Source of the DNA: a virus
Taxonomy: Duplodnaviria; Caudoviricetes
Strand: one strand, 5' to 3'
IMG/VR virus record: IMGVR_UViG_3300046167_000543
Coordinates: 1 to 61,602 of that record
DNA length: 61,602 nucleotides
The position numbers and the translations under genes are program-made. A model generated the notes under the pieces. The model was not told where the DNA came from and made no database searches. It saw only the letters and a program-made list of their open reading frames with translations. Each line of letters opens with the position of its first letter. Position 1 is the first letter of the stretch. Below are positions 138-59,446 of this stretch, in pieces.

Positions 138-583
138 AATTTTTCTTTTTTATTATATTCTTCTATAGTTATAGAGTACAAAGACTCTTCTATTTTTTTT
201 ATTTCTCTTGTGTTCGTAGGGTTTTTATGTATGTTTATGAACACACAATCTTCTTTACAAACTATAAATCTTTTAGCTCCTTTTATAGATTTTTCATAGC
301 AAGGTGCTATATGCTCAACAGTTTCTCCGTTTGTTGTAACTAATATTTTACCAGATAATAAAAACCAAAAATGATCTGTATGATGTATAGCACTTATAAC
401 AAAAGAATTTTTTTTCATTTGCATTTTTCTCATGTACAAACCATCAGAAAAATCATGTGATATAGGTATAAAATCGTTATTCACAAGCTCTTTACCGTTT
501 CCATGTATATGCTCAATGTGGTTGTTTTTTATAAATATATTTTGTAAAGCCTCTAATTTTTGTTTAAAATTATCTAATTCCAT
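125..583 (-). CDS. cupin-like hypothetical protein
   Basis: 152 aa; His-rich beta pattern HDFSDGLYMRKM...IHHTDHFWFLLSGKILV. Confidence 0.5.
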   Translation of the reverse strand: MELDNFKQKLEALQNIFIKNNHIEHIHGNGKELVNNDFIPISHDFSDGLYMRKMQMKKNSFVISAIHHTDHFWFLLSGKILVTTNGETVEHIAPCYEKSIKGAKRFIVCKEDCVFINIHKNPTNTREIKKIEESLYSITIEEYNKKEKLWQE

Positions 584-11944: not shown

Positions 11945-14362
11945 TCAACGAGGCTCAAACTGTTCAAGTCCAAATCCTCCTAGTGAGTCAAATCCAGATG
12001 ACTCAAAGTTTTTAGGTAGTTCATCGTTTTGACGCTGTGATATCATTTCTGATTGTTGCGTGCCTATAATTCTAGCACGCTCGTCTTTACGATCTTCTAT
12101 TTCTTTTTCTTTAGATTTTTCAACATCAGCTCTAGCTCTTGCTAACTGTATATTGTAATTAAATTCTTCAGCCATTAACTCTCTTTTTATTTGAGCTTCT
12201 GTCTGCATGCGTTGTATTTCAAACTGTGATTTAGCTTGTTCAATACTAACTTTTTCTTGTGTAAGCGCTTGCTGTTTTTGAACTTCAGCCATAGCTGCTT
12301 GTTCGGCAGATTGAGCATTTGCTTGTGCTTGCGCCTGTATATTAGCTTGTTGTGCTTCTTGATCTCTTTCTCTTTTTTTCTTTTGACTTAGTTTAAGATA
12401 TTGATTAGCAAGTTTTATATTACTTATCTGCCTAATATCAATAGCATCTTCTAAGCCAATTTGCCCTGCTTGTAAAGCTATTTGTATATTCTTTTCAAGC
12501 ATTTGCTTTTCTTCTTCTTCAGGTTCAAGTTCTAAAAATATACCAAACTCATGCATGTTTAATTTACCGACCTCTGCAAGTGTTGCCACGTTGAATGAGT
12601 TTATAGAATTTAATAAAGCTTCTTTTAAAAGAGGAAAACTTAAAGCATCAGCAATTCTTAAGCTAATATTTTCTGCGGAACTAACTGTTAAATACATTAA
12701 AGACTGTAGTATGTGCTTGGTAGCTGTATTAGAAGCCGCCGCTGCTAGCTTTTGTAAACCTACTAATGAATCTTTAGCTGGTTGGCTACCGTCCCTAGCT
12801 TCGTTAAGTCCTGTCACGTCTCTAATCATTTGTAAATAATACTGATATGTTTGTATAAGAGCTTGTATTTTAGCCATACTAGACGATGTTTGCAATTCTT
12901 GTATTGGTACTTTACCTCTATTAGGATCACCATCCTGTGTCAAACTTCTACCGACAATACTACCAGTTTGAAAGTACATATTCAAAGCTTCTTGAGCATT
13001 ATAACTTGTACCATTACCAAGGTCTACCTCTGCTAAACCATCCACGTCTACAAACACACCATCGGGCACTGTTCGCGCTAGCACTTGTTGTATTTTTAAA
13101 TGTGTAAGCTGTATCATGTCCGCAAACCCAATACATTTGCTAACTAAACTTTCTATACGACCTTTATACATCCGCGGAGCAGATATATTGTAGTTCATTT
13201 TAACTTTAGTCTGGTTGCTATACGGTCTTGTCATGTTTTCAGACAATTCCCACTTAAGCATTTTTTCGTGTCCAAGTATTTTAGCGCCACTATATAAAAC
13301 TTCTATAGCTCTATGAACTCTATCAAAGTTATCGCTTTCAGGTGGATCAAACGTGTCTGGCTTTTCTAAAGCTTTTTCAAGACCTTGATCTGTTTGTTTT
13401 ATTTTAAATACTTGATTTTCATAAGTTTTATATTCAAAATACAACACTTGAATTTGACTTTGCTGATCGTCTTGAGCGTAATAATTACGAGTGTAATTTA
13501 CATTACCCGGATATTTTTGTATTTCTTCTAAATCAGAATCTGTTAAATAAGGAAATTGTTTTTTAATCTCTTCAAGAGTAACGCTTTTAACTTCACCTAC
13601 GTAATATATATCTTCAAAATTAGGGTCTTCAGTATATGAATAAACTAAATTAGCAGGATCTACATAATTAACAGTAATACCATTAGCTAAATTAAAATCT
13701 GTTTTAACAGCTGATATACCTATAACGGTTAAATCATAAGCCAAGCGTTTTTTTACTTCTTCGTATTTATTATAATCAAAAACATTAGATATAGCTTCTT
13801 CTTCAGCTATTTCAATAGCTTGCTTGTAATTCAATTGAATATATAAATCTAGTTCTTCTTTACTCTCAGGAAGATTTGTTGGATCTGATGTATAAGATAA
13901 ATCAGCTCCTAAATTCTGTTGTATAGATTCCAAAAGAGGTTTAGCGTTCATATCTCTAAGTATATTCGCTGTGTAATCAGTTCTTTCTTTTAAAGCATAA
14001 GGATCTGACGCAAAAGATTTTATTTCATAACCCTTGTCTGTCATACCATTTACAACAATATCTACAAACTTAGATAATACAGCTACTGGTTTCCAGTCTA
14101 AATTTAAATAAGATAAATCACCATTAATAGATAATTCATCTTTGTACTTTGCTACAGATTGTTCGCCTCTAGCATATAGTCTTAATCTATGAAAATCTTG
14201 CCAACTATTACCAAAACGGCCTCCGGATCCTAAACCTCTATCGCCTCTAAACCATTCGTTTTCTATAGCTCTTCCTACAGCTAAGCCATAATCATATGTC
14301 TTTTTCTCTGCGTCTGGTACTACCTGACTTGGGAAAGAACTATTAACATTAGTGTAAATCAT
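11945..14362 (-). CDS. portal protein
   Basis: 805 aa directly after TerL; RDVTGLNEARDG motif and long Gln/Ala coiled-coil C-terminal barrel as in P22/crAss-type portals. Confidence 0.8.
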   Translation of the reverse strand: MIYTNVNSSFPSQVVPDAEKKTYDYGLAVGRAIENEWFRGDRGLGSGGRFGNSWQDFHRLRLYARGEQSVAKYKDELSINGDLSYLNLDWKPVAVLSKFVDIVVNGMTDKGYEIKSFASDPYALKERTDYTANILRDMNAKPLLESIQQNLGADLSYTSDPTNLPESKEELDLYIQLNYKQAIEIAEEEAISNVFDYNKYEEVKKRLAYDLTVIGISAVKTDFNLANGITVNYVDPANLVYSYTEDPNFEDIYYVGEVKSVTLEEIKKQFPYLTDSDLEEIQKYPGNVNYTRNYYAQDDQQSQIQVLYFEYKTYENQVFKIKQTDQGLEKALEKPDTFDPPESDNFDRVHRAIEVLYSGAKILGHEKMLKWELSENMTRPYSNQTKVKMNYNISAPRMYKGRIESLVSKCIGFADMIQLTHLKIQQVLARTVPDGVFVDVDGLAEVDLGNGTSYNAQEALNMYFQTGSIVGRSLTQDGDPNRGKVPIQELQTSSSMAKIQALIQTYQYYLQMIRDVTGLNEARDGSQPAKDSLVGLQKLAAAASNTATKHILQSLMYLTVSSAENISLRIADALSFPLLKEALLNSINSFNVATLAEVGKLNMHEFGIFLELEPEEEEKQMLEKNIQIALQAGQIGLEDAIDIRQISNIKLANQYLKLSQKKKRERDQEAQQANIQAQAQANAQSAEQAAMAEVQKQQALTQEKVSIEQAKSQFEIQRMQTEAQIKRELMAEEFNYNIQLARARADVEKSKEKEIEDRKDERARIIGTQQSEMISQRQNDELPKNFESSGFDSLGGFGLEQFEPR

Positions 14363-16567
14363 CTATTTTATTATTTTTGAAATATTGCCTTTATTATCAT
14401 ATTTTTTAAATGATAAATTAACAGCCTGTTTTTTTGATTTATAAACTGGTGTATATTTGTTTTTGTTACAAGCCATTATAGCTAAACCAGAACTAATAGA
14501 AGCATCGTGTTTTGTTCTATTGTTTATATTAAACTTAGCCCAGTCTTCTAACGTTTCTTGAAAATACATATTACCATACATAGTTTCTTTAAGCCCAACG
14601 TGGTCTTCTATATAAGATTCTATAGCAGCGGCGTGAGCTTGCTTAATATCTTCTGATGAGTTAGGTATTCCACCTATCTCTCTTTCTGCTACAGACAGTT
14701 TTAATTTATCTGGTCTGTTCATTGAGAAAGCTCTGTAACCTCTACGTTTTAAATAATATAAAAGTCTAGGTTTATTATTTTCTGCTAATATTGGCATGCC
14801 ATAGAAATGCAAAGCCATAAGCACATCTTCAAAGAATATCTCAGCTGTTGGAGGTCTTGATATATATTCTAAGAAAAACATATTAGCCGGTACGTTTTCC
14901 ATAGAGAATTTTGTAAGTCCGTGAAGAGCTCCATTAGATCCTCTATTATCTACTGTACCCGATATATCGTATGAGTCACATCCAAAAGCACCACAGTGCT
15001 CGTTACCAGGATATTTAACTCCATTCTTTATTATTACACGATTTTGTAATTGTATAGGTGGAACCCATGAAACTAAGAATCTACCATTTTTATTTGGCAT
15101 AAAGTTAACAACAGTATCTTTTATACCACCTTGCCAAGAAAAGTTACCTCTTGTTACTAATTTAGAGTTATCAGACTCGTCGTTATAATCTATCTGTTCG
15201 TATATCTTAGTTAGATTAAATAAAGATTGTTTTGTCTCATCTCTAAAAGCATGTTGCTCTGTTCGGGGAAACTGCCTATAATATTCATTTAAACTATCTT
15301 GATCACCTTTTAAACCATCAACTTCATTTTCCCAATGGTTTATAACCCCTACTTCAATTTGTAATCCGTCTGCACCTTCAACTGATTTTGCCGGCGTATC
15401 AAAGACAGGGTGTCCATAAGTATCAATGAATCCTTCGTAATTCCACTCCATAGGTATGAACAAAGAATATAGTCCTGAGCTAGTCTGTCCGTTGCGGTTT
15501 CTTTTTGTAACGTCTGAAGCATAGTATAATTTTTTAAAGTTTTCACCACCTTTGTCTAAAGCGTTTGAGGTTGAACCCATCATACACTTACCTACAATTC
15601 TGCTACCCAACCTCAATGTGGTTTTTGTAACCCTCCAGTTGTTTAATATGTTATCAGGTCTTTCCCATTTACCTGATTCATCGTGTACAAGCAGTTTTAG
15701 TTTTTCACCATCATAACTGTTGTCACCTGTATTTTTCCAGTCAATAGTTGTGTCAAGACCTACAACTTCATCAGGTGTTTCACCTTGATCCAGCTTTCTA
15801 CGAGTTAGCTTTGATGCTGGCACTCTGTATGCTAGTTCTGTTTTTGGACGATCCATACCGTCCTGTATTGGTTTAAAAAAGAAAGGGTAGTTGATTGATA
15901 TCGGTACTACCTTATCTGTGAACATTTTTTTAGCATCAGCCCCTGATTTTGATAAGATACCGAATCTTGAATCTGAACTGATTGTTGCCAGGTTAACAGT
16001 TTCGCCTGATGCCATGAATGAGAAACCTGATCGTCTGTTTTTGAGGTAGCACATACCGTAGCATCTTTGATCTGCTTTGCAAGCTTCCCAGAATATAAAG
16101 AATAATCTGTTTGACTCCCTAAAGTCTGCTGCCCCAACATCAATCTTACTCCACTGCAAGTACATGTAGTGAGTGCCAGTGAGATAAGTAGCAACACCTT
16201 TGTTATTGAACCAGTGACCCTCATCACGACGCTTGAACTCTTCGTCAATATACTCATACCATCTTTCTTTAAAGTGCTCCGGGTATTTATTCCACTCAAA
16301 TACACTTTTTATTTTATTTAATTCTTTAGGATATTCTTCTCTAGACCATTTGTCCTTGTCCTTATTTAGTTTACCTTTAAAAGGTGGTAATGCTATTTTA
16401 AGGTTTTGTATTTCGTATACATCACCTATTTGACCAGTCTTACTTATAACTACTATATCGTGCTCTTTGTTATAACCGTACTCCCACTTTTTGCTTTTGT
16501 TATTTCTACTAACAACGTGAGGTTTTATATGATCTGTAAGTACAGTAAATAAGCTTTGATTGTACAT
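14363..16567 (-). CDS. terL: terminase large subunit
   Basis: 734 aa; LKNRRSGFS Walker A variant, LLVHDESGK Walker B, GST coupling motif, C-terminal RNase H-like nuclease (FGCDSYD, ILAENN, HDASIS). Confidence 0.85.
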   Translation of the reverse strand: MYNQSLFTVLTDHIKPHVVSRNNKSKKWEYGYNKEHDIVVISKTGQIGDVYEIQNLKIALPPFKGKLNKDKDKWSREEYPKELNKIKSVFEWNKYPEHFKERWYEYIDEEFKRRDEGHWFNNKGVATYLTGTHYMYLQWSKIDVGAADFRESNRLFFIFWEACKADQRCYGMCYLKNRRSGFSFMASGETVNLATISSDSRFGILSKSGADAKKMFTDKVVPISINYPFFFKPIQDGMDRPKTELAYRVPASKLTRRKLDQGETPDEVVGLDTTIDWKNTGDNSYDGEKLKLLVHDESGKWERPDNILNNWRVTKTTLRLGSRIVGKCMMGSTSNALDKGGENFKKLYYASDVTKRNRNGQTSSGLYSLFIPMEWNYEGFIDTYGHPVFDTPAKSVEGADGLQIEVGVINHWENEVDGLKGDQDSLNEYYRQFPRTEQHAFRDETKQSLFNLTKIYEQIDYNDESDNSKLVTRGNFSWQGGIKDTVVNFMPNKNGRFLVSWVPPIQLQNRVIIKNGVKYPGNEHCGAFGCDSYDISGTVDNRGSNGALHGLTKFSMENVPANMFFLEYISRPPTAEIFFEDVLMALHFYGMPILAENNKPRLLYYLKRRGYRAFSMNRPDKLKLSVAEREIGGIPNSSEDIKQAHAAAIESYIEDHVGLKETMYGNMYFQETLEDWAKFNINNRTKHDASISSGLAIMACNKNKYTPVYKSKKQAVNLSFKKYDNKGNISKIIK

Positions 16568-17914: not shown

Positions 17915-18319
17915 TTACTTGTCTTTATTATTACTTATTTTTTTACCTTTTTCCCACGTACGACCCACAAAATAAGCACCATACACAGTTATTAATAGCG
18001 ACTGGAATATAGGTATATAATCCTCTGCTATTGAAAACTCTCCTATGTTACCATCAAAAAATGCTAATACAGAAAATATAAAGGTAAGGTATATAAGAAC
18101 CATTGGCCTTATATTCTTAGACAAGAAGGAATCGGACTTCATATCCGACTCCCATCTCGCTGTTACCTGGTCTTGAGCATCTTTATCTGCTTGCTCTAGC
18201 AGCTCTTCAACTTTTAGTTTAGCCTCGAGTCTTTCTTCATCAGTAGTTACTAGATCATCTATTACTTGACCTATATCTTTAATGAGACCTCCAGTTATAA
18301 GTTGAAGAATTTTTTTCAT
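17915..18319 (-). CDS. holin (GTA 3TM-type)
   Basis: RWESDMKSDSFLSKNIRPMVL + TM helices + YFVGRTWEK. Confidence 0.75.
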   Translation of the reverse strand: MKKILQLITGGLIKDIGQVIDDLVTTDEERLEAKLKVEELLEQADKDAQDQVTARWESDMKSDSFLSKNIRPMVLIYLTFIFSVLAFFDGNIGEFSIAEDYIPIFQSLLITVYGAYFVGRTWEKGKKISNNKDK

Positions 18320-18783
18320 TTTTTGTTAAAAAAATTTATTCTTTGATTAATATTTGAATAACCCGCGTTTTCAGGAAGTTTTATTCTTTCAGATGGTTTA
18401 GAAAAACGAGAATGTTGTTCAAATAAATCTGTAACGCTTGCCCCCGCCTCTTTTCTTTTGTTATATTCTTTCTCATCTATAGGCACCCTGTTTCTGTCGG
18501 ATATGTTTGCGAAGTTACTTGAGCTTCTTAGATCAGTTTGACGCATTCCGCGATCTGTTGGTGTTAAGCTTGTTTCATCTTGCATCCAATTCCTTTTATT
18601 GTACTCATCATATCTAGCTTTACTTCCAATAGGTAAATCTTTCATTTTTGTAGAAGTACCATCTTTAGGGTCGGTTTGATAAAGAGCTGACATATAGGCT
18701 GATGAACCTTCTGCCATATATCCTACTGCTTTGTTTCCGGCAGATGCTTCCATATGTCCTACCGGTTTTTTGTTATATCCCAT
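18316..18783 (-). CDS. hypothetical protein, paralogous leader with next gene
   Basis: 155 aa; starts MGYNKKPVGHM...NKAVGYMAEGSSAYM. Confidence 0.55.
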   Translation of the reverse strand: MGYNKKPVGHMEASAGNKAVGYMAEGSSAYMSALYQTDPKDGTSTKMKDLPIGSKARYDEYNKRNWMQDETSLTPTDRGMRQTDLRSSSNFANISDRNRVPIDEKEYNKRKEAGASVTDLFEQHSRFSKPSERIKLPENAGYSNINQRINFFNKK

Positions 18784-18806: not shown

Positions 18807-19271
18807 TTAGCGACGTGCTTTTGGTCTTTTTCTAATAGTATTATCTATAGTTCTTACTACAGCGTTATCATACAGATTAATATCTTGAATTTTTTCTCCA
18901 ACAAAATCACCAACATCACTCACCCCTCGTGTTATTCCTCTTAAAGCGTCTCCAGCTCTTGTTGTACCGTATTTTTCTTTGTATGATTTTTTCTTTTTCT
19001 TTTTAGATTTTTTTTGCCTAGGAGCAGTTAACACGACTTCTTGTAAATTACCACCTAGCTCAGAAACTTCTCTATTGCCATTAGTAGCTGCTTCTATTTC
19101 CGACTCTAAAACATATCTTTTTTCACCATCTTTATCTAACTGTTTCATAGGTGAATGACCCATTTGCGTCACGCTATTCATATATGCAGAAGACCCTTTT
19201 GCCATATATCCTACTGCTTTGTTTTTCATTGGACTTTTCATAAATCCAACTGGTCCTTTTTTATATCCCAT
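18807..19271 (-). CDS. basic hypothetical protein with TonB-box-like motif
   Basis: 154 aa; MGYKKGPVGFM...NKAVGYMAKGSSAYM leader, LQEVVLTA, poly-Lys tract. Confidence 0.55.
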   Translation of the reverse strand: MGYKKGPVGFMKSPMKNKAVGYMAKGSSAYMNSVTQMGHSPMKQLDKDGEKRYVLESEIEAATNGNREVSELGGNLQEVVLTAPRQKKSKKKKKKSYKEKYGTTRAGDALRGITRGVSDVGDFVGEKIQDINLYDNAVVRTIDNTIRKRPKARR

Positions 19272-19273
19272 TT

Positions 19274-19639
19274 TTATCCTTTTAATTGTTTATTTGCAAA
19301 TAATCTTTTATAAGTAAGCTTTGTGTTCATATCACCCTTAAGCTTGCATATAAGAATATTTTGATCTTTTAATTTATATTTAACTGTAACAGTGTAACCA
19401 TTGTTTTTATTAAAAACTTTAGTTGTAAAAGTATTTTTAGTTTTTTTAATTATAGTCTCTTCAATTGTCGTGCTGTTAACAGTGTTAACATTAACCACAT
19501 CTCTAACGCCGTATTCACCTTCGTAAATAACAACTATATACTTTGACTTAGGTGTTACCCATGATCCTTCAAAAGACTCTTGTGCGTAAATAAACGCTGA
19601 GCTAAAGCAAAAAGCAATAGCTAATATTATATTTTTCAT
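19274..19639 (-). CDS. exported beta-rich protein with signal peptide
   Basis: MKNIILAIAFCFSSAFIYA|QESFEGSW; GxW near the mature N-terminus and a basic C-terminal strand (YKR) suggest a lipocalin-like barrel. Confidence 0.55.
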   Translation of the reverse strand: MKNIILAIAFCFSSAFIYAQESFEGSWVTPKSKYIVVIYEGEYGVRDVVNVNTVNSTTIEETIIKKTKNTFTTKVFNKNNGYTVTVKYKLKDQNILICKLKGDMNTKLTYKRLFANKQLKG

Positions 19640-50704: not shown

Positions 50705-53700
50705 TTACTTTATTTTAGATTTTTTATATTTACTTTTTCTTGGTTGCGGTTTGTTGCTAGGTTTTTCCTCATCAATACCAATTTCCCAGTCTTGCCAACC
50801 ACCTAATAACGTCAAGCGTTCCCAAGTCTCTAAGTCTTGTGACGTAGCTGTAACCACGTTGTTGGTTTTCTTTATAGCTCTATCAAGAGGTACATTAGTA
50901 AGCGCCGCTATAACATTAGCACTTGCTAAGTAAGCTGGGTTATCTAAGCTCCAACCTTTTTCTTTCATTTCGTCTTTATCCCATTGGTAAGATCTCGCTG
51001 CTTGATTTATACGCGATAGCTTAGCAGATATAGGTGGAGATAGTTTAGTAATTTCATAACCTACTTTTTCAAGCTTAGGTCGTTCCTTTTCCATCTCGTT
51101 TATAATACGGATTATAGCGTTTTTACCTACTGAAACTACAGCACCGCCTAATCCCATACCTCTTAAAAGCGAGTCCATCATACCATTAGCTATACTAACA
51201 TATTTTTTCTTTTGCTCGTCTGTATCTTCTTCATCATCATCAAAAGCAAACGCAAACAAAGCTTGTTGCAACGCGTTAAACAATAAGTTCTGCGCTACAC
51301 CGTAGTATATAATCTTACTTATATTAGTCTTAGCATCGCCTCGGCCATTCTTAAGATCGCTAGCAGCTTTTTTTATAAGTCTAGCATACTGAGCTGGTGT
51401 GTTAGCAAAAGCTAATACAAGACGTCCTAATGGACCTGCTTGTTGCATTGATATTCTATCAGGCCTTGATGACTGTTGCGACTCTTCTGCTGTCTCTCTA
51501 AAGTCTACAAATGCCTGAGCTTCAGCCTCAGCATCTGTCATACCTTGTTTTTTCAAGGACTTAATACGGTTACGATAAAACGCTGAGCCACCTGATGCTA
51601 TAGCAAAGCTATCTGCTATTTGTGTAGGTGTGAAACCAAACTCAAGTAGTTTATTTATAACGCCTTTAGCACCACCTTTCTTAGCCATATCTGCAATATC
51701 AGCTTCACTTACGTTGATACGTAAACCACCACGACGTTCTTTCAAGAAGTCAGAGTTCATAAGCGTCATAAAGTCAGACCAGTATTGTTTCTGGTTTGCA
51801 AAAGCTTTACCCGCAGCTAGTATATTGTTATCAGTGAAGTTAACAAAGTTAATACTAGATATAGTTTGTAGTATTGCTGATCTTGTATTAAAGAACATTA
51901 TAGTACCAATACTACCTGTGACCCAGTCAGTAAATCTACCTGTAAGCGTATCGCCTTGGAAGTTTCTGTTACGACCAGACTTCATACGCTGCAGCATATT
52001 CTCCATAGCTAAGCGATATGGTTTACCGTACGCAGCTTCAAGTTTATTTAAATTCTTTTCAGAGAATATAACATCTGCATTAGTTTGCCACTGCTCTAAG
52101 TACTTAGCTCGCTTAGTGGTGTTAAGACCTTCAAGCATATCAGTTGTAATAGTACCAGCTGGCCAACCTTCTTTAGGCGCCGCGTATTGATCACCTTTTT
52201 GTATAGCAACTAGTTGATCAGCAAAAATCTGTAGCTCAGCATTGTCGCTTACGTACTTACTAAGATCAGCTTGATCTTTCTTACTTATCCCAGGTATAGA
52301 CATACCTTGCTTATCCCATATGTACACGCGTACAGCTTGCTCTCTAGTAAACGGTTCACCTGGAACTTTCTTACGTAGATTTTTAGGTACTATTTCTAAT
52401 TGTTTCTTTAACAATTTGTAGTCGTTCATCATAGATATACGAGCTGATGACAATTCATTCATAGCTCTAGCATATGGGTTTAACAAATGAGTTTTATACC
52501 ATGCCATCTGTTGGTCACCTAATTTACCTTTACCAAGCGTAGCGTATAATAAACCTGTAAAGTCTTCAGCAGATGGTGGTATAAAGAAGTTTAATCTACC
52601 TTTACCAGCCCCAGCTACTTCAGCTTTTACTCTACCATATTCTTTTTCAGATGCTATACCTGTTTTGTTTTCTAGTATATCATTAAAACCTCTATCAAGA
52701 TCAGCTTTTTTACTAAACTTAATTTTAGCTTGCTGTACTTTAGATTTTACATCAAATACATTTAATGCGTCTTGTACTGCTTTAACGTTTTTATACGCAT
52801 CATCTACAAAGAAAAAGTCGTTATAACCTTCAGCAGCTTTACCCGTCATCCAACGTGCTTTAGCCTCTGCTTTACCATCACCAAGCCCTACAATATTTTC
52901 AATAGGCAGGTTAACGCCAAGCGCGTCCATAAATTCTTTGATAGGACCAGCAGCATTAGCAGGTCTAGCTGTAAGTATGAATACATCTTCAGCACCTCTT
53001 GCTTTAACTATATTTTCTATAGCTTTAAATACAGGACCTCTTTTACCGTCAATCACTTTGCTAAACTCCGAGAAATCAAACTGAGCTCCTTGAGCTTCTA
53101 ACTCTCCAGCTCTTGCAGCAAACTGTGTAGCGTTAAGCTTACCAGTTGTACCATCAGGCATCTCGTATAGCACATTGCTGTTAGATCTAGCTAATGTATC
53201 ATCAAAGTCAAATACACGTATCTTTTTAACAGGTGCTTCAGGGTTTCTAGCGTTAGCCATAGCTTTGTCAGCATTACCTAAGTTATCAAGTATTTCTTGA
53301 TTAGGTACTTGCTTACTAAACTTAATAGTGTTATTTTGATTGTTATTACCAACACCAGCTTTAGGTATGGATTTTAATTTAGCAAATTCATTTAATCTAT
53401 CTTGCCCTGTTTTAGCAGTTATATCCCCGCTCAATACTTCTTTTAATATTTTATTTTGCTCAGATACAGTTTCAACATTTACATCACTAGGTTTTAAAGC
53501 AACACCTAGTTCTTCAGCCATAGTTTGACCTGTTTCGTAATTAACAATACTATTAAGATCGATACCAGCTTCAATAAATCTAATAGCAGGGTTGTCTGCT
53601 ATAGTTGTTCCAATAGGTAGCGTAGCATCTAACTTAGCATCGTCTAATTTTTGATCGTCAGCTTTAGAAAGTTTAGTTTGATAATAGTTCTTTTTAATAT

Positions 53701-56700
53701 CAGTCATTATTTGACTAGTATTATTTGTAGCAAAACCATATATGATTGAAGCGCCAACCACGGATGCTGGAGGATTGTGTTCTTCTCTAACCTTATCACC
53801 TGTTCTCTGCTTAGGTGAGGTACCGTATTGTGGATTTTTAGAAAAATACCTAAACGGTGCTGCTATCTTAATAAGACCAGTCGTTGCTTGGTAGCCTTGA
53901 GCTATAATCATAGCTGCTAATTCTTTAGGCATACCATTTTGTATAGCTTTATCTAATTGACTTACAACGTCGTCAAGCACTTGCATGTTAATTTTTGCTT
54001 GAGCTCTTCCTTTGTCTGTATCAACATCTTTAAGATTAACCCTTTTAGCTTTAGGTTTTTGATCTCCTTTTGAGTTTGATTTAGCTTTATCTAAAGCTCT
54101 TTTATAAGCTGGATCATTGACGCCGTAATACAATCTACCTCTATTTGGCAAAAGATTAGTAATGTTTTTTGGAGGAACAACTTTTTTACCAACAGTACCG
54201 TCAGTTTTAATTAAACGTTCTCCTTTAACCCAATCTCCGTTATCTAACGCGTACCAGTAATCACCTTCTTTTGCTTTAGTTCCAGTTCTTTCTAAAAAAG
54301 CGTTTAGTTTTTTAGCTTCAGGTGTTAGCTTTCCTTTTTTTGTTTTTCCTACTTGAGTTCTAACAGCGCCACCAAAAGCAAAAGATCCTGCTAAAAATAC
54401 ATCTTCAGTAAGTTTATATTTTTCTATAGCGTCTTCAAAAGAAGTTTGTATTTCAGCTCTTTTATTATCAGGAACGCTAGCACTATCCATGCCAACTATT
54501 TTTAGTACAGCATTAATATCTCTAGCTTGTGTAACATCTATCAACGCTTTTTTACTAAACATAAGTCTAGATCTACCAGCTCTAGTATCTGCTCTCTGCT
54601 GTTTAGGAGCACTCTCTGGCAACGATTTGTCTGCAACTGATAAAGCAACTTGACCACCACGCATACGCGCCCAAGCGGCAAGTTTTGTAGCGTAGTTTCT
54701 TCTTTCGTTTTTACTAAGCTCGTTTAAATCAACGTCAATACCAGCCCACTCTCTGGCTTTTGATACAGCTTGCGGACTTATTTTACCTTGTCTATTAGGT
54801 CTAAACTCTGGTTTTAATCTATATACTTTAGTTTGAGTAGTCTTACCTTTGCTTCTACCAGACTTGTTAGTAATAGCCATTGCTCTAACAGCTCTATCTG
54901 TACTTTCAGAAGCTGGATCTGTGTAAGGTTCGTAAAAGAAATCTAATACTGTTTGACCTATTTTCATAGATCGACCTCTAACTTCTGGACTTACTGGTAC
55001 TCTTTCACCTTGCTCTGTAATAGTCGACTCCATTGTTGTGACGTTAAACTCAGGCATAGTCTTTATAGACCTTTCAGTCTCTTGAGCGTTAGAAAAGTCT
55101 TGTTGTATTCTACCAAGCTCTGAAGTTTCAGGTTTGTTTTTAGAATAGGTTAAGTTATCTACTTTTTCTATTTTATCTTCAGGAACATTATATATTTCCG
55201 ATGCAAATTTAGAGCGATTGTTATTTAATATTTCTACAGATGAATCACCTTCATTTATTTTTATTTCTTTTTCTAACGTTGGTAAAACTTTTTTAACTCT
55301 AGGACTTTTTCTTACATCAATTAGTTTAGATCTACCTGATTCTTCAGCTTGAGCTCTTTCCTCTATTTCAAAAGCTTGTTCAGCTGTTTCGTCCGCAAAT
55401 TGAGTTTGCTCTACAGCTTGTGTTATAGTAGATTGACCTGTACGTCTAGTGTAGTCTTCTACAATTTTAGGACCAACACGTCTACCTAATATATTACCTA
55501 CATAAGTACTAAGCTGCATCGGCTTTCCAGTCACTCTATTCGTCGGTGTGTAATTTTTCATTACACTTTCAAATTGATTGTTTATATCGCTTATTACGTT
55601 TTCATCAACTTGAAGTGGAACACCTCTTTGTTTAGCCCATCTTTGCAGCGCGTCTATACCAAGTCTTTGGTATTGATCTTGTAAATTAGAAATGTCTTGC
55701 TCAGACATAGATTCTTTATTGTTCTTATATTGACTAGCTAAATCGTTAACAGCTTTAGAGGCTTTGATTGTAGTTTCATCTTCCTCATCTACATCGGCAA
55801 TAGCAACACCAGAAATAGCTTGTTTTCTAAAAGAATCTATATAGTTATAAACATCTGAGCCTGTGTTAAATTGTACAAACACCTCTGATTGATCTCCAAA
55901 AATTTTATTAGTTATGTTATTAAACAAACCTTTAAAAGAATTTAATACGTTATTAGGATTGAAATCGCTTTTGTTTAATATACCTAAGTTAACAGCGTCG
56001 CTAAGAACTTGCATAAATTCCTCATAATCACCATCATTTTCGTATTGAGCTAAACGTTTTTTTATAGCGTCGTAATCATTTTGAGTTATAGACTCTTGTT
56101 CTAGCTTATCATCTAACATATTGATGGCTTCTGTCACTGCTTTTTTATTTGTTAAAGCTTCAGCAGAATCACCTGTAAATTTTATTTTTTTATTTTTATT
56201 TCTAAGATGACTAACCTCATGTAAAGCTGTAACAGCAGCAAATTTACCATTAGAGTTAGTAATAGATTGTAATATACTTTTTTTAGACTCATTAACATCT
56301 ACAACAACAACATTATCAAAAGCGTATGCGTTTTGACTACCACTTGTGATTAATTCAAAAGCATCTGCGGTTTGTACATCTCCATTATCATCTGTATAAC
56401 TTATAGTTCTACCTTTAAATTTTTCAAGATCAGCAGCGTCTTCTTCAAGGAAATAAATTTCATTTCCTTTACCAACCATAGCGTCAGCCATAATATTAGA
56501 AGATTCAAACAAGTTTAAATGAAATATAGTTTCAGGATTTGTTTTAATATCAAGATTTTGCTTGTCAATAAACTCTTGATTACGCTTACTTCTAACACTA
56601 AGTATATCGTTTTTACGATTTTTCAAAACCACTGACTGCTCTTGTAAGTTTTGTAAAGATTTTATTTCGCTTTCTGTAGGAAGTCCAGTTGTAGAATTTG

Positions 56701-59446
56701 CTAATGTAGTTGCGTCCCTTGTTATTTTTTTTATTGCAACTTCTATTTCACCAATTTCTTTTATTTGTGCTGGCGTAAGTGTGTTTAATTTACTTATGTT
56801 AACAATGTCTTGTAACCCTAGGTCTAATAATATTTCTTTACTTTTCTTTATACGATCTGACGTTGGTAGATCTTGAGCTTCTATAAGTTGTCTAGTCAAA
56901 GATTGATACTTGCTTAACTCACTATTGCTTGTAACGTGCTCTTTAATAATAGCGTTAGCATTGTTTATTGTTTTACCGCTGAGCATTAGCAAAGTAGCAA
57001 AAGAAGTATTAGCAAAAAGATCTTCGTTTATTTCTTCAAAAACATTTACATTTTCTCCAAGTATAATATTACGAACAATACCTTGATCTAGTATGCTTTC
57101 TAAAGATTCTTGGGCATTTTCTTTTATTAAGCCACCACCCACAACACCTCCTAATTCTAAAGTCTGTGGAATCCAAGCTTTAGAAACAGCGTCTTTATCT
57201 AATAAAAGTCTACCGCTTTTTAATTCTTTTATAAATTTATTTTTACCTATGTTTTTAGCTACTCTATTAAAGTCATCAAAAAGTTTTAATGTTACTGCTT
57301 GCTCTGAATATTTTGTTATAAAACCAGTTACCAATCCACTAACTCCTGTTTGAAATGTAGATTTATTTAAACTATTTTCTAAAGAAACAATTTGATTTTC
57401 TAATTGACGTTTAACTATAGGATCTTTTGTTTTTTCTATTTCAGCTTTTAATCCTTCTATTTTTTTAGGATTAAACTTTTTAGCAATTTCTACACTTTGA
57501 ATAGTTTGGCTTCCGGTTTGTAATCCAAATAAATTACCAGAAACTTTAGCCATACCTTTACTTAAACCTTTGTTAAATGAAGCAGTTGCAACTCTTTGAG
57601 CTGCTGACATACCACTAGTAAATCCTTTTGCAACTAAACCTGTTACTAATTGTGGTCCAGCTATGGTTAACAGTGTAGGCGCCGCAGAAGCTGTTGAATC
57701 AGAAACAAAAGCCCAACCGCTAGCTTTACCTTTTCTAACTTCATCTACCGTTATTGGAGATGGTAGCGCTTGTATTTTTTCTTCTATAGCTTGATTGTAG
57801 TTTACAGCTGTACCTATTAAAGCATCAGCGCCTCTAACTAATTTGGAATCTAATACATTTTGAAAATCAAATCCACTAGCGCCTGATTGTGTTAGTTCTG
57901 CTAAACCAGATGTTAAAAAAGCAGCTGCCCTAGCTGTGTAAGCCCCTGCAATAGCAGCGCTACCGCCGAAAGATTGTTCTATATTTAAAGCTGTTCTAGT
58001 GCTAAACCTATAGTCTTTGTTTAATGCTACAAATGTTTGATCTAAATCTTTTAAATCATCATACTTTTGAAGATTAACATTATATTGTTGCTGCATTTTA
58101 AGAATTTGAACTCCTTGATCAGCAAGTTTTAAATTTTCTTCTTGTAAAGCTTGGGCTTCTGGGCCTGTTGCTATAGCATTTCTTTCGTTTACTTTTTGCT
58201 GTAACTTATTGTAAATATTATTACCAGTTTCTTGACCAGTACTAGTAACAGGGTAAGCAAAATCTTGCAAACGTTTTTTGTAGGTTTCTATATCTTTGTC
58301 TAAAACCTGTATAGCGTCATTTATTTTTTCAATTTTTGGAGCTAAAACATTAAAATCATTATTATATTGTTCTTGCCTTGCTACCAAGGTAGAACCTCCT
58401 ACTTTTAAATCGTTTTTAACTTTATCTAAATCTTGTCCTTCTGGAGTTTCTTTTAATAATACACTTGTAAAATCTTGAACGTCTTCATTATAGTTATTAG
58501 CAACTAATTCTTTATTTCTATTTTCTATAGTATATAAAGCTTGTTGATTTGCAGTTGGTATAGATTCTTTTTGATAATCATTTAAAGGGTTTAATGTACC
58601 TTTGTCTTGATATTGATTATACAAAGCAACGTAATCTTTTGCGCCTTGGTCATTTAAATTGGCAGCAATAGCAGCGTCATAAATTCTCTGTTCTTTTTCT
58701 TCTTTAGTAGCAGCCCTTCTGTTTATTTGAACAGTTCCACCTGGAGTAACAGTGGTAGTACCTAAGTCTACAGGAGCATCGATCCAACCAGTACCACCAC
58801 CCGGGGTTTTTTCAAAATAAACTTCATATGTTTTATTAGTTATCTCTTGCTCTGGTATGTTAGCGTTAGCATTAGCTATGTTATCTATTAAAGATCTAGC
58901 TCCAGATTCTTCACCTACATAACCTTCGTATTGAGCACGTTGAACATCTGCTTTTGTAAGTTCGCCTTTAGCAAAAGCATCTTTATATTTATTTTGATTT
59001 TTTAATCTATTATCTAGCTTAGACCATTCTTCTCTAGTAATAGGCGTGTTATCTCCAAAGCCAGTTACAACAACTTCTTCAAGATCTATAGTTTGAGAAG
59101 AAATTAATTTATCTTCAAACCTGCTAAGCCTACGTCTTGCCAATATAGCATCTCGAGATGTATCTAATTCACCGTATTCAGCTACGTCTTTTTGTAACTC
59201 CAATAAAGTATTTGCCGAGTCTGATTCCGTACTCTCGGGTGCTTCCCCGGTTTCCGGTGTTGCAGTTGCACCCTTTGCCACAGCACCGTTTGTCTTTCCC
59301 TCGGTTGGGGTTGTTTGTATTTCGTCTGTAACTTCTACAGTTTCAAGTCCATGCTTGTTTACATACTCGTCTACAGACAGTTGCTCATTACTTGCAGCTT
59401 GAGTAACTTCATCTAACGTGTATTCAAATCCTTGATACTTAAACAT
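50705..59446 (-). CDS. giant internal virion/ejection polyvalent protein (zincin + HAD domains)
   Basis: 2913 aa; HEVSH, HAD motifs DFDDT/LTAR/K/VDD, C-terminal region with hydrophobic helices; last of three ejection-like genes. Confidence 0.7.
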   Translation of the reverse strand: MFKYQGFEYTLDEVTQAASNEQLSVDEYVNKHGLETVEVTDEIQTTPTEGKTNGAVAKGATATPETGEAPESTESDSANTLLELQKDVAEYGELDTSRDAILARRRLSRFEDKLISSQTIDLEEVVVTGFGDNTPITREEWSKLDNRLKNQNKYKDAFAKGELTKADVQRAQYEGYVGEESGARSLIDNIANANANIPEQEITNKTYEVYFEKTPGGGTGWIDAPVDLGTTTVTPGGTVQINRRAATKEEKEQRIYDAAIAANLNDQGAKDYVALYNQYQDKGTLNPLNDYQKESIPTANQQALYTIENRNKELVANNYNEDVQDFTSVLLKETPEGQDLDKVKNDLKVGGSTLVARQEQYNNDFNVLAPKIEKINDAIQVLDKDIETYKKRLQDFAYPVTSTGQETGNNIYNKLQQKVNERNAIATGPEAQALQEENLKLADQGVQILKMQQQYNVNLQKYDDLKDLDQTFVALNKDYRFSTRTALNIEQSFGGSAAIAGAYTARAAAFLTSGLAELTQSGASGFDFQNVLDSKLVRGADALIGTAVNYNQAIEEKIQALPSPITVDEVRKGKASGWAFVSDSTASAAPTLLTIAGPQLVTGLVAKGFTSGMSAAQRVATASFNKGLSKGMAKVSGNLFGLQTGSQTIQSVEIAKKFNPKKIEGLKAEIEKTKDPIVKRQLENQIVSLENSLNKSTFQTGVSGLVTGFITKYSEQAVTLKLFDDFNRVAKNIGKNKFIKELKSGRLLLDKDAVSKAWIPQTLELGGVVGGGLIKENAQESLESILDQGIVRNIILGENVNVFEEINEDLFANTSFATLLMLSGKTINNANAIIKEHVTSNSELSKYQSLTRQLIEAQDLPTSDRIKKSKEILLDLGLQDIVNISKLNTLTPAQIKEIGEIEVAIKKITRDATTLANSTTGLPTESEIKSLQNLQEQSVVLKNRKNDILSVRSKRNQEFIDKQNLDIKTNPETIFHLNLFESSNIMADAMVGKGNEIYFLEEDAADLEKFKGRTISYTDDNGDVQTADAFELITSGSQNAYAFDNVVVVDVNESKKSILQSITNSNGKFAAVTALHEVSHLRNKNKKIKFTGDSAEALTNKKAVTEAINMLDDKLEQESITQNDYDAIKKRLAQYENDGDYEEFMQVLSDAVNLGILNKSDFNPNNVLNSFKGLFNNITNKIFGDQSEVFVQFNTGSDVYNYIDSFRKQAISGVAIADVDEEDETTIKASKAVNDLASQYKNNKESMSEQDISNLQDQYQRLGIDALQRWAKQRGVPLQVDENVISDINNQFESVMKNYTPTNRVTGKPMQLSTYVGNILGRRVGPKIVEDYTRRTGQSTITQAVEQTQFADETAEQAFEIEERAQAEESGRSKLIDVRKSPRVKKVLPTLEKEIKINEGDSSVEILNNNRSKFASEIYNVPEDKIEKVDNLTYSKNKPETSELGRIQQDFSNAQETERSIKTMPEFNVTTMESTITEQGERVPVSPEVRGRSMKIGQTVLDFFYEPYTDPASESTDRAVRAMAITNKSGRSKGKTTQTKVYRLKPEFRPNRQGKISPQAVSKAREWAGIDVDLNELSKNERRNYATKLAAWARMRGGQVALSVADKSLPESAPKQQRADTRAGRSRLMFSKKALIDVTQARDINAVLKIVGMDSASVPDNKRAEIQTSFEDAIEKYKLTEDVFLAGSFAFGGAVRTQVGKTKKGKLTPEAKKLNAFLERTGTKAKEGDYWYALDNGDWVKGERLIKTDGTVGKKVVPPKNITNLLPNRGRLYYGVNDPAYKRALDKAKSNSKGDQKPKAKRVNLKDVDTDKGRAQAKINMQVLDDVVSQLDKAIQNGMPKELAAMIIAQGYQATTGLIKIAAPFRYFSKNPQYGTSPKQRTGDKVREEHNPPASVVGASIIYGFATNNTSQIMTDIKKNYYQTKLSKADDQKLDDAKLDATLPIGTTIADNPAIRFIEAGIDLNSIVNYETGQTMAEELGVALKPSDVNVETVSEQNKILKEVLSGDITAKTGQDRLNEFAKLKSIPKAGVGNNNQNNTIKFSKQVPNQEILDNLGNADKAMANARNPEAPVKKIRVFDFDDTLARSNSNVLYEMPDGTTGKLNATQFAARAGELEAQGAQFDFSEFSKVIDGKRGPVFKAIENIVKARGAEDVFILTARPANAAGPIKEFMDALGVNLPIENIVGLGDGKAEAKARWMTGKAAEGYNDFFFVDDAYKNVKAVQDALNVFDVKSKVQQAKIKFSKKADLDRGFNDILENKTGIASEKEYGRVKAEVAGAGKGRLNFFIPPSAEDFTGLLYATLGKGKLGDQQMAWYKTHLLNPYARAMNELSSARISMMNDYKLLKKQLEIVPKNLRKKVPGEPFTREQAVRVYIWDKQGMSIPGISKKDQADLSKYVSDNAELQIFADQLVAIQKGDQYAAPKEGWPAGTITTDMLEGLNTTKRAKYLEQWQTNADVIFSEKNLNKLEAAYGKPYRLAMENMLQRMKSGRNRNFQGDTLTGRFTDWVTGSIGTIMFFNTRSAILQTISSINFVNFTDNNILAAGKAFANQKQYWSDFMTLMNSDFLKERRGGLRINVSEADIADMAKKGGAKGVINKLLEFGFTPTQIADSFAIASGGSAFYRNRIKSLKKQGMTDAEAEAQAFVDFRETAEESQQSSRPDRISMQQAGPLGRLVLAFANTPAQYARLIKKAASDLKNGRGDAKTNISKIIYYGVAQNLLFNALQQALFAFAFDDDEEDTDEQKKKYVSIANGMMDSLLRGMGLGGAVVSVGKNAIIRIINEMEKERPKLEKVGYEITKLSPPISAKLSRINQAARSYQWDKDEMKEKGWSLDNPAYLASANVIAALTNVPLDRAIKKTNNVVTATSQDLETWERLTLLGGWQDWEIGIDEEKPSNKPQPRKSKYKKSKIK

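Follow-up and report, generated by a model that had tools for sequence, protein, structure and literature searches.

A host-type TonB-box motif in a giant phage protein: may an injected protein be plugged into the TonB motor of the host?

By what route do short-tailed phages bring their ejection proteins and DNA across the periplasm, and which source of energy drives this passage? This question is raised in a concrete form by the window analysed here (the whole stretch of 61,602 nucleotides), in which one open reading frame encodes a protein of 2913 amino acids whose residues 120–131 read IDLEEVVVTGFG. An earlier note on this DNA had seen in these residues a SusC-type TonB box near the N-terminus of a giant ejection protein and had proposed that the phage may use the TonB-ExbBD energy of the host to draw this protein, and with it the DNA conduit, across the periplasm. 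The protein is indeed giant, and the position assigned to the motif coincides exactly with the ten codons of LEEVVVTGFG (Table 1). The idea was said not to be known for phage ejection proteins, and in the limited literature collection searched no description of phage virion or ejection proteins bearing a TonB box was found, nor any text joining 'TonB box' with 'internal virion protein' or 'ejection protein', while a search joining it with tail or injection led only to the receptor FhuA.

How exceptional is the motif within the window, and in what structural setting does it lie? The back-translated 10-residue pattern occurs once on the two strands of the window and in none of 100 dinucleotide-preserving shuffles of it, and the 5-residue core EVVVT likewise occurs once, with a shuffle mean of 0.02. 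In the AF2 model the segment around the box (residues 118–136) has pLDDT values below 50 and lies between predicted helices at 98–117 and 138–159. By prediction, the box is thus found in an accessible, unstructured N-terminal segment and outside any predicted fold, the opposite of the burial in a fold that the earlier note had named as speaking against its proposal. The motif had also been described as following a long acidic, low-complexity linker. An acidic stretch rich in Thr, Pro, Glu and Ala does exist at residues 39–77, and its sequence is conserved among homologues, but two predicted helices (81–89 and 98–117) separate it from the motif, which lies in a second stretch of low confidence. 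Residues 1–30 are modelled with pLDDT values of 81–87, the first ~85 residues are common to homologues that are otherwise mosaic, and in an alignment of 11 N-termini D95, S97, A100, I101, R104 and R105 of the basic helix are invariant. Nothing in the surroundings of the motif resembles SusC.

Table 1. Features of the giant open reading frame, with positions in the window
Feature	Residues	Position	Strand	Basis
Giant ORF P0001	2913 aa	50705..59446	minus	ORF list and stop-free translation
Small N-terminal domain	1–38	59333..59446	minus	AF2 model; two short strands and two helices
Acidic Thr/Pro/Glu/Ala-rich linker	39–77	59216..59332	minus	pLDDT <50, net negative charge
Basic helix directly upstream of the box	95–117	59096..59164	minus	Predicted helix 98–117
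TonB-box-like motif LEEVVVTGFG	122–131	59054..59083	minus	Ten codons exactly
HEVSH (HExxH motif), possible metallopeptidase site	1076–1080	56207..56221	minus	Sequence inspection
HAD/polynucleotide-kinase-phosphatase-like part, DFDDT motif at 2080	2065–2242	52721..53254	minus	phrog_415, E 1.3e-05
Conserved all-helical C-terminal domain	2235–2913	50708..52744	minus	Homologue comparison and AF2 model

The giant proteins of this family have a mosaic middle between conserved ends. No Pfam family was matched in the HEVSH region, and the HAD/PNK-like part is missing from the homologues P0004 and P0005. The C-terminal domain, in contrast to the mosaic middle, is 70–88% identical in most mosaic homologues; it is modelled as all-alpha with pLDDT values of 80–92 over about the first 260 residues, and 6565 proteins or clusters among 8000 candidates scored are related to it at E<=1e-10.

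Does the motif have the form of a host TonB box? A scan for EEVVVTG[YF]G with one genome per prokaryote species yielded at least 120 loci, and the motif lay in an open frame in all 120 of the matches listed. Among these listed matches, 74 of the 80 record titles shown name taxa that we take to be Bacteroidota, and the 79 fragments scanned contained a Plug domain in 71 cases and CarbopepD_reg_2 in 73. In bacterial genomes the 9-mer therefore appears, among the matches listed, almost exclusively in SusC-like transporters of Bacteroidota. It is no exclusive mark of TonB clients, since the listed matches also include A2M proteins (fragments L039, L051 and L075), DUF4139 proteins (L022 and L048) and three actinobacterial M24 peptidases; CarbopepD_reg_2 was additionally matched in L051, L022 and L048 and was absent from L039 and L075. 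Thirty transporters of two Flavobacteriaceae genomes carry boxes of the type L-[DE]-E-V-V-V-[TV]-G, one of them being LEEVVVTGF, and the phage motif ranks first, at 24.8, with a profile derived from these 30 boxes; by this score and by its identity with the SusC 9-mer it conforms to the consensus of host-lineage transporters. In the SusC protein Bt1763 the TonB box is 81-VDEVVV-86, and growth on levan is lost when it is deleted or switched to alanines (PMC7782687). The designation as SusC-type is borne out by all three comparisons. Among 2.9 million viral contigs, from which near relatives of the window were possibly left out, the exact 9-mer was found in a single other place, a SusC gene. TerL of the phage matches 87 phage records (Flavobacterium 68, Cellulophaga 15, Tenacibaculum 2, Maribacter 1, uncultured 1), and these relatives point to Flavobacteriaceae as hosts, in keeping with the Bacteroidota link drawn before.

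Whether homologues keep the motif received a divided answer. The pattern [DE]V[VI][VIL]T occurs 34 times in 138 family proteins (341,841 residues), counts that are not independent events as the members are related, and all 34 occurrences fall at residues 105–195; beyond position 400 (286,641 residues in the 138 proteins) there is none, and the reversed motif is absent from the same proteins. A score of at least 14 against the host-box profile is reached by 40 of 199 N-terminal windows, by one of 1134 windows elsewhere, by two of 3980 shuffled N-terminal windows and, with the profile reversed, by none of 199. In a MAFFT alignment of 11 N-termini with 32–97% identity L122 and V125–T128 are invariant and divergence sets in directly after T128. 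The motif occurs in nine upstream and nine downstream flank classes, a conservation that is partly circular as the rows were chosen by a pattern. On the tree of the C-terminal domain presence of the motif requires 35 changes, as compared to 37.1 +/- 1.75 for shuffled labels. The motif thus recurs, and does so solely in the N-terminal part, but it is absent from about 80% of the family: 104 of the 138 proteins lack it by the strict pattern, as do 64 of the 73 5'-complete giants from viral contigs, and 146 of 199 family proteins lack it even at a profile score of 10. Neither do the giants at the syntenic position in the two closest annotated phages (MW202828.1, and gp18 of Flavobacterium phage elemoE) contain such a motif, and blastp detects no likeness between them and the 2913-residue protein. 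Since about four fifths of the family and both syntenic giants do without it, the box cannot be the general entry mechanism of the family but only an accessory module, and it is dispensable for the general work of the giant proteins. Absence from homologues had been named in the earlier note as refuting its proposal, and this objection partly holds.

Could the box be bound by TonB? The motif was docked on the C-terminal domain of a flavobacterial TonB, taken from a stand-in genome and not from the true host, with a score of 0.79, whereas the best of three controls scored 0.00. At least 68% of the contacts agreed between the docking runs, and the partner pLDDT was at least 50. Of 157 solved complexes 116 attained the mark applied, as did two of 215 mismatched pairs, counts that are rough because own alignments were used. 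Complexes between TonB and TonB boxes have been solved and belong to textbook knowledge, and the docking pass may therefore only reflect likeness to solved complexes or the memory that the model has of them. In the modelled interface residues 111–112 and 115–130 of the phage protein face TonB residues 222–235 in parallel register, residues 115–130 lying on the last strand of TonB and residues 111–112 and 115–117 of the helix region touching TonB as well. A parallel strand is also the mode described for FhuA with TonB (PMC11658791). The modelled complex, which had been suggested as a check, hence shows the box docked in the canonical way and supports, in silico, binding of the box to the TonB C-terminal domain.

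It could also be imagined that the motif is a beta-strand serving the biology of the phage itself, by pairing with portal, core or tail during packaging or by forming an oligomer after ejection, and that its likeness to a TonB box is convergence on a good strand-forming peptide. The free swapping of the motif module between backbones, seen in the tree comparison, would fit any modular N-terminal adaptor, and L[DE]EVVVT also turns up, when viral contigs are scanned loosely, within ordinary folded proteins of the virion (portal, terminase, scaffold, tail tube). However, the match runs over ten residues and includes the TG[YF]G tail that Bacteroidota SusC proteins typically have, not one shuffle of the window contained the full pattern, the only other exact 9-mer in the viral contigs (less near relatives possibly left out) belongs to a SusC gene, and unrelated control partners scored 0.00 on TonB. 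We consider such a strand unlikely. Alternatively, the box may bind TonB as a tether or blocker and not as a pulling handle, either anchoring the ejected protein or channel to TonB-ExbBD at the inner membrane or occupying TonB, so that transporters stay shut, excluding other phages and bacteriocins or cutting nutrient uptake. The same motif and docking evidence as for pulling speaks for it; however, few copies of the injected giant protein come with each infecting virion, and few copies are a poor means of titrating TonB. We hold a role as tether or blocker to be decidedly unlikely.

Is the giant protein delivered by the virion at all? Its gene lies on the same strand and in the same block as the genes for portal, TerL and 'virion structural' proteins, a location inside the virion gene block as expected for a podophage ejection protein, and it is the last large gene of the structural block when the record is taken as circular. 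MW202828.1 and Flavobacterium phage elemoE likewise have giant genes, of 3859 aa and 3694 aa respectively, following TerL, portal and structural genes in this position, and elemoE gp18 is annotated as 'structural protein'. Several unrelated enzymatic or effector domains, mosaic between relatives as in polyvalent proteins, are present, namely the HAD/PNK part, the HExxH motif and, in the relatives P0133, P0134 and P0137, Zeta_toxin/AAA_33. Matches of the C-terminal domain fold in BFVD are pieces of giant viral proteins labelled polyvalent (PolyVal, LPD), MuF-C or structural, at E values of 1e-6 to 1e-4 and TMq of 0.4–0.5, and an Atlas pointer to LPD39 is based on 28% of one cluster. In Pfam no LPD, MuF or PolyVal family was matched, even at E<=1 on six overlapping pieces of the protein, and Pfam, PHROGs, PDB sequences and PDB folds gave no match to a known ejection protein. 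For polyvalent proteins, injection along with the DNA is predicted by Iyer et al. (PMC5512222), and from synteny and the fold likeness to "polyvalent" proteins packaging into the virion and ejection are the most likely fate of the 2913-residue protein. Were it instead to act only in the infected cell, or to lose its N-terminus by processing before packaging, the motif would not come into contact with TonB in the periplasm, and any role connected with TonB would fall away. This would agree with the missing homology to any proven virion or ejection protein and with the HExxH motif, as Iyer et al. (PMC5512222) discuss cleavage of polyvalent proteins by metallopeptidase domains, either ahead of packaging or following it. 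Yet the gene is placed and oriented with virion genes, its syntenic counterpart in elemoE is annotated as structural, the fold resembles polyvalent, MuF-C and structural proteins, and retention of the motif solely in N-terminal position argues for some function, so that we regard this course as very improbable. Least probable of all is that the motif is a neutral passenger, a fragment acquired from the gene of a host transporter or something that regional composition produced by chance, for while just 10 residues match and SusC likeness is absent around them, the core is invariant across N-termini otherwise 32–49% identical to that of this protein, stands in several unrelated flank classes and is far commoner than in composition-matched shuffles.

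The best joint explanation, to which we give a little less than an even chance, is that a podophage of Flavobacteriaceae-like hosts encodes here a mosaic giant of the polyvalent type, which carries a TonB-box mimic for coupling to TonB. The giant protein would be made together with the virion proteins, packaged and injected, its N-terminus presenting in this order the small domain, the disordered acidic linker, the basic helix and the flexible segment copying the TonB box of SusC-type outer-membrane transporters of the host. The protein lacks a signal peptide, and therefore the box segment could reach the periplasm only from outside, via the tail. Once exposed there, the box could couple the giant protein to the TonB-ExbBD motor, which is driven by the proton-motive force, and the motor would hold the unfolded giant protein or pull it out of the tail and across the periplasm, similar to the import of colicins and pyocins. 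In this manner the phage may plug an injected protein into the TonB motor of the host; the computations show the motif, its match to host boxes, its flexible setting, its confinement to the N-terminal region in the family and the docking in silico, and we infer packaging and ejection, periplasmic exposure, binding in the cell and any pulling.

A more elaborate, bacteriocin-like version, which we hold to be quite doubtful, goes further. The phage would dock on a SusC-type transporter, the N-terminus would cross the outer membrane, perhaps through an unplugged barrel, and show its box, and the proton-motive force would reel in the 2913-residue protein with the DNA behind. A width of ~20–25 Å is roughly that of double-stranded DNA. 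The unplugged SusC barrel has been put at ~20–25 Å (Gray et al.). The box module would then be a recombining cassette by which entry is adapted to hosts or receptors; about one fifth of the family, a marine one of very high abundance, has this module, and its shuffling is independent of the remainder of the gene. According to this version, a further box would be carried by a second protein of the phage, which is small and basic.

If coupling to TonB is true, the host-type TonB box would give an injected phage protein access to a concrete and testable source of energy, and the trick of colicins and pyocins to borrow TonB would extend to viruses. In addition, tonB and exbBD would become new determinants of host range and resistance for phages that infect marine Flavobacteriia, a group with a major part in the degradation of algal polysaccharides. 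Members of the protein family abound in ocean metagenomes.

How does the phage protein compare to known systems? As in SusC/RagA transporters, in which L-E-E-V-V-V-T-G-[YF]-G is the common form, the box is found ~100–130 residues from the start, after a small domain and in a flexible stretch. In contrast to them, the carrier is a phage protein of 2913 residues devoid of Plug, barrel, CarbopepD_reg-like domain and signal peptide; a SusC/RagA transporter (TIGR04056) is ruled out, as TIGR04056 has no match in the whole record and neither Plug nor another Pfam family has one on the protein. With podophage ejection proteins (T7 gp14/15/16, P22 gp7/16/20, N4 vRNAP and its two partners), which are expected to traverse the envelope before the DNA or together with it, it shares large size, mostly helical structure and a gene in the structural block of a phage of the short-tailed type, but neither sequence nor solved-structure likeness. 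Entry that depends on an envelope-spanning energy system, as proposed here, is found for T1, phi80 and filamentous phages. The g3p of filamentous phages binds the TolA C-terminal domain directly; it is a capsid-tip protein and targets Tol, not Ton. T1 needs TonB for irreversible adsorption, and the TonB box on which T1 and phi80 rely belongs to their receptor FhuA and not to the phage (PMC11658791). Polyvalent proteins are likewise giant, mosaic, encoded with virion genes and composed of unrelated enzyme-like parts, and the main text of Iyer et al. (2017, PMC5512222) mentions neither TonB nor periplasm. TonB-dependent bacteriocins (group B colicins; pyocin S2, M11VITH15) are, like the phage protein, foreign proteins with a TonB box of their own in a disordered N-terminal region, a precedent invoked before and confirmed for pyocin S2, whose Kd for TonB1 is ~1 µM and which fails to be imported when its box is lacking (PMC5692591). 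The phage protein itself is ruled out as such a bacteriocin, as Pfam and PHROGs reveal no receptor-binding, killing or immunity module and only the disordered box-bearing region is in common. The bacteriocin box is gripped by TonB after crossing of the outer membrane (PMC5692591), and the phage box would likewise be used from outside the cell, with delivery by the phage tail proposed in place of diffusion and threading through a transporter, and with a box of the host-transporter type where that of bacteriocins is short and divergent.

The giant gene on the minus strand is open throughout and translates into a putative ejection protein of 2913 residues, and the window that encodes it is a whole virus record of 61,602 bases, 96%-complete. 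The earlier note had seen a TonB-box-like segment near the N-terminus of this protein; its coordinates prove to be the exact codons of LEEVVVTGFG, which lies within IDLEEVVVTGFG (residues 120-131). The window contains a single occurrence of the back-translated pattern of the ten residues, and 100 shuffles contained none. That L(D/E)EVVV(T/V)GYG is the TonB box of SusC-type transporters of Bacteroidota, as the earlier note stated, is supported by a characterized transporter, by a genome scan and by flavobacterial boxes. The SusC protein Bt1763 of Bacteroides thetaiotaomicron has its TonB box, 81-VDEVVV-86, after an N-terminal extension domain; either deletion of the box or its replacement by alanines causes a growth defect like that of the transporter knock-out (PMC7782687). 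Scanning one genome per prokaryote species for the 9-mer EEVVVTG[YF]G gave at least 120 loci; among the matches listed, the frame was open at 120 of 120, the GFG form occurred in 9 of the 120, Bacteroidota were recognised in 74 of the 80 titles seen, and 71 and 73 of 79 fragments (a 47-aa one, L045, being excluded) matched the Pfam Plug domain and CarbopepD_reg_2, respectively. The end of the CarbopepD_reg_2 model (position 88 of 88) itself runs into the TonB box. The 9-mer is not exclusive to transporters, since among the matches listed it is also carried by three actinobacterial M24 peptidases and, as EEVVVTGYG, by Bacteroidota fragments matching alpha-2-macroglobulin/A2M (L039, L051, L075) or DUF4139 (L022, L048). 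CarbopepD_reg_2 also matched in L022, L048 and L051 and was absent from L039 and L075; a partial Plug match was seen in L039 and L051 and none in L022, L048 and L075 (Pfam). The sole exact match in the viral contig collection (L122, IMGVR_UViG_3300029714_000224) is apparently a host-type SusC gene of at least 555 aa with an open 3' end on a viral contig of 19,989 bases. Boxes of 30 transporters from two Flavobacteriaceae genomes include LDEVVVTA, LDEVVVVGY and LEEVVVTGY, and LEEVVVTGF itself is present in a transporter of a genome titled Maribacter ulvicola. Against a host profile built from the 30 boxes the phage motif scores 24.8 bits; nothing in the six frames of the window and nothing in the whole giant-protein family scores higher. 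The motif is real, non-random, host-like and in the right kind of place.

Features of the window discussed in the text
Feature	Coordinates	Strand	Remark
Giant gene	50705-59446	minus	2913 residues
LEEVVVTGFG	59054-59083	minus	ten codons exactly, residues 122-131 of the giant protein
N-terminal start of the giant protein	59333-59446	minus	alternative starts in homologues
Portal	11945-14362		PHROGs
Large terminase (TerL)	14363-16567		PHROGs
Second TonB-box-like motif NLQEVVLTAPRQKK	19020-19046	minus	profile score 14.7
ORF of basic protein	18807-19271	minus	154 aa
Neighbouring paralogue of basic protein	18316-18783		without box
ORF with signal-peptide-like stretch	19274-19639	minus	121 aa, no PHROG match

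How could a phage protein make use of such a box? The motif, the place where it sits, the way it is distributed and the docking model are shown; the steps from packaging to pulling are inferred. The giant protein would be packaged and injected, its flexible N-terminal box would get to the periplasm and add onto the C-terminal domain of TonB, and the TonB-ExbBD motor would then hold the unfolded giant protein or pull it inward. This is our best reading, held tentatively. The N-terminus of the giant protein is hydrophilic and lacks a signal peptide, so that any meeting with periplasmic TonB must come from outside. A Kyte-Doolittle scan of the giant protein found no 19-residue window reaching 1.4, and therefore no membrane helices are claimed.

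AlphaFold2 prediction of the first 260 residues, with 11 aligned homologous N-termini as input, yielded a small confident domain (residues 1-30, pLDDT 81-87), a low-confidence stretch at residues 39-77 that corresponds to the acidic Thr/Pro/Glu/Ala linker, helices at 81-89, 98-117 and 138-159, and a second low-confidence stretch (118-136). The latter contains the motif, which, lying thus between helices, is not buried in the predicted fold, burial being one of the findings that the earlier note would have counted against its proposal. The long acidic low-complexity linker described there is present, although the box does not follow it directly, as the first two helices intervene in the model. 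In the giant protein and its homologues, the shared linker follows one of at least four different N-terminal starts (MFKYQGFEYTLDEV, MARSKEQKDQLKSLVDQLRSEGLSTDEIQ, MAKYKIGTDLYDLPEEK, MNEDQINELKSLVDEL). They matched no family; their 'LS.DEI/Y' pattern, inspected by eye, has a helix-turn-helix look reminiscent of SAP/HeH-type DNA-binding motifs.

Docking was modelled with the TonB of a 2.0-Mb genome titled Candidatus Arcticimaribacter forsetii, a stand-in that may not be the TonB of the phage's own host. This genome has a single TonB_C match, in a protein of 235 aa with membrane anchor, proline run and C-terminal domain. Co-folding of TonB residues 116-235 (aligned with three other flavobacterial TonBs) and phage residues 90-150 (aligned with the N-termini) gave a score of 0.79, as compared to 0.00 for the best of three controls. 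Among solved complexes 116 of 157 attain this mark, and among mismatched pairs 2 of 215 do; these counts are rough because own alignments were used. At least 68% of contacts are common to the runs, and partner pLDDT is at least 50. The modelled interface comprises phage residues 111-112 and 115-130 and TonB residues 222-235, and the contact pairs (TonB:phage 226:120, 228:122, 230:125, 231:126, 232:127) form a parallel added strand, the same mode by which FhuA binds TonB (PMC11658791). Complex prediction, one of the checks proposed earlier, thus supports binding rather than showing it. The model takes the segment for a TonB box, albeit the pass may come from the model's memory because TonB-TonB box complexes have already been solved. 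Alternatively, the motif could be a strand for the phage's own assembly whose likeness to a TonB box is convergent; we consider this unlikely. Somewhat less probable still is that the box is bound by TonB as a tether or block and not as a pulling handle. Binding of TonB as such is plausible on these in silico grounds.

Which phage carries this protein? The terminase gave 87 matches among phage records, every one with at least 80% query coverage, 68 from Flavobacterium, 15 from Cellulophaga, two from Tenacibaculum and one from Maribacter phages, the remaining one being an uncultured 'Podoviridae sp.' (63.8% identity). Since its terminase relatives belong to phages of these genera, a Flavobacteriaceae-like host within the Bacteroidota is inferred. 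In addition to portal and terminase, PHROGs labels several 'virion structural proteins', tail fibres, a holin and GroEL/GroES-like genes, with the replication block on the opposite strand. The two closest annotated records, the circular MW202828.1 and Flavobacterium phage elemoE, have the order TerL, portal, structural genes, giant gene (3859 aa and 3694 aa, respectively; the elemoE product gp18 is annotated 'structural protein'), and the window taken as a circle has the same order. Neither megablast nor tblastn of the giant gene or protein found a similar record in the 'phages' collection, from which close records may be missing. Near the N-terminus of the 121-aa ORF that adjoins two basic proteins and the holin is a hydrophobic stretch, MKNIILAIAFCFSSAFIYAQ, that clearly resembles a signal peptide.

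Homologues of the giant protein have the first ~85 and the last ~680 residues in common, the C-terminal part being 70-88% identical in most of them, and the ~2000 residues between are a mosaic. A HAD/PNK-like piece (residues 2065-2242, phrog_415) is absent from the homologues P0004 and P0005 and is the only PHROGs match of the giant protein. The cargo of the freely recombining middle is enzyme-like and varies: HAD/PNK in this protein, Zeta_toxin/AAA_33 in P0133, P0134 and P0137. Of 8000 candidates scored in a search with the C-terminal domain, 6565 proteins (clusters) reached E<=1e-10; they form a very large family from marine and other metagenomes, with Zeta_toxin/AAA_33 labels on 3 of the best 120 matches. 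The domain is all-helical in its AlphaFold2 model (mean pLDDT 62.6, 80-92 across about the first 260 residues) and matched nothing in the PDB by profile or Foldseek. BFVD gave 52 matches at E<=0.001, four of them homologues and the others pieces of giant viral proteins (E ~1e-9 to 1e-3, TMq mostly 0.4-0.5); those that are named have labels such as 'PolyVal ADP-ribosyltransferase', 'Large polyvalent protein associated domain', 'Phage MuF C-terminal domain', 'Nuclease' or 'Structural protein [Tenacibaculum phage Gundel_1]'. The ESM Atlas gave viral hypothetical clusters only, plus a weak LPD39 lead in 28% of one cluster, and Pfam searches with the whole protein and six overlapping pieces at E<=1 returned sub-threshold noise. 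As the fold matches are polyvalent/MuF-type pieces, 'polyvalent protein' appears to be the best class label; membership is not established, since none of the LPD, MuF and PolyVal models of Pfam matches. Polyvalent proteins were predicted to be injected with the DNA by Iyer et al., whose main text mentions neither TonB nor the periplasm (PMC5512222). Nothing useful was found in the literature on virion proteomics of Cellulophaga-type podophages. It is quite improbable that the giant protein never leaves the cell or that its N-terminus is lost; the giant gene at the same place in elemoE is annotated as structural.

Among the homologues, exact identity over the ten residues is confined to the close clade P0002-P0007 (at least 73% identity over the N-terminal 500 residues). 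In divergent members the core L-x-E-V-V-V-T recurs at varying distance from the start and in unrelated flanks. In 138 family proteins (341,841 residues) [DE]V[VI][VIL]T occurs 34 times, always at residues 105-195 and never in the 286,641 residues past position 400, and the reversed pattern does not occur. In a separate sample of viral contigs, 9 of 73 5'-complete giants (two 5'-cut ORFs being left out) carry the motif in their N-terminal 400 residues, and in three giants one lies deep inside. With giants below 1500 aa omitted, as also for the tree, the host profile reaches 14 bits in the N-terminal window 61-400 of 40 of 199 distinct proteins, in 1 of 1134 equal windows elsewhere in the family and in 2 of 3980 shuffled N-terminal windows; the reversed profile does so in 0 of 199. 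MAFFT alignment of the 11 N-termini, 32-97% identical to this one, shows L122 and V125-T128 to be invariant, the sequences diverging right after T128. From a further alignment (A3), L284 was left out because its frame is broken. The motif was found in nine upstream and nine downstream flank classes; the anchored information profile was used for flank diversity alone, as core conservation is circular when rows are chosen by pattern. That the motif is a neutral scrap is very unlikely.

On a FastTree tree of the last 640 residues, motif presence changes 35 times, as compared to 37.1 +/- 1.75 with shuffled labels, and no clade structure is seen. The box-bearing N-terminal module is thus exchanged freely between backbones, which precludes a count of independent gains. 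A recognisable box is absent from about four fifths of the family (104 of 138, 64 of 73, and 146 of 199 at 10 bits), an absence from homologues that the earlier note would have held against its proposal. The giants of MW202828.1 and the cultured elemoE have no motif under three patterns, and blastp against the giant protein gave nothing better than E 0.45. Since most of the family and both syntenic giants lack it, the box is an accessory module and not the general mechanism of the family.

A looser DNA scan of viral contigs (L[DE]EVVVT[GADEV]) gave at least 116 loci with about 100 expected by chance on our estimate, so that these counts are no evidence and the contexts alone serve as a lead. 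Of 78 ORFs of at least 180 aa, 41 were examined after near-duplicates and apparent host transporters had been removed by eye; 15 of the 41 had a PHROG match, and ordinary folded proteins are among them (portal twice, TerL, scaffold, tail tube, PRPP kinase). Among the matches listed (L123-L238), many unrelated viral ORFs have L[DE]EVVVT[GA] in Pro/Thr/Ala-rich, low-complexity flanks, for example L139, L146, L158, L179, L186, L210, L216, L227 and L238, and the groups L124 and L137; L162, L176 and L182; L144 and L163. PHROG labels include 'internal virion protein with endolysin domain' (L146), 'virion structural protein' (L144, L163), baseplate hub (L143), tail tube cap (L156) and 'minor head protein and DNA pilot' (L198). 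The window itself has a second TonB-box-like motif, the only other six-frame match scoring above 10, directly before the poly-lysine run of a very basic protein (33 K+R). The sole two homologues found for the latter have just the C-terminal ~55 residues in common with it, and yet both bear DLDEVIVGLD (score 8.7) in the corresponding position ahead of their poly-K run.

How would a packaged and injected giant protein gripped by TonB compare with known systems? The giant protein itself was rejected as a SusC transporter, TIGR04056 being absent; the phage protein would have copied the box of such transporters and is no transporter. Its gene occupies the same genomic place as those of podophage ejection proteins, but the protein matches none of them. 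The earlier note knew of no description of a colicin-like entry mechanism for phage ejection proteins, and in the literature searched, of limited coverage, we found no TonB box described in a phage virion or ejection protein. The box would work like that of group B colicins and S-pyocins, although the giant protein is no bacteriocin: pyocin S2 has its own N-terminal TonB box, binds TonB1 with a Kd of ~1 uM and is not imported without the box (PMC5692591). Phages T1 and phi80 depend on TonB via the box of their receptor FhuA (PMC11658791); there the box is the receptor's and not the phage's, whereas here the phage protein bears it.
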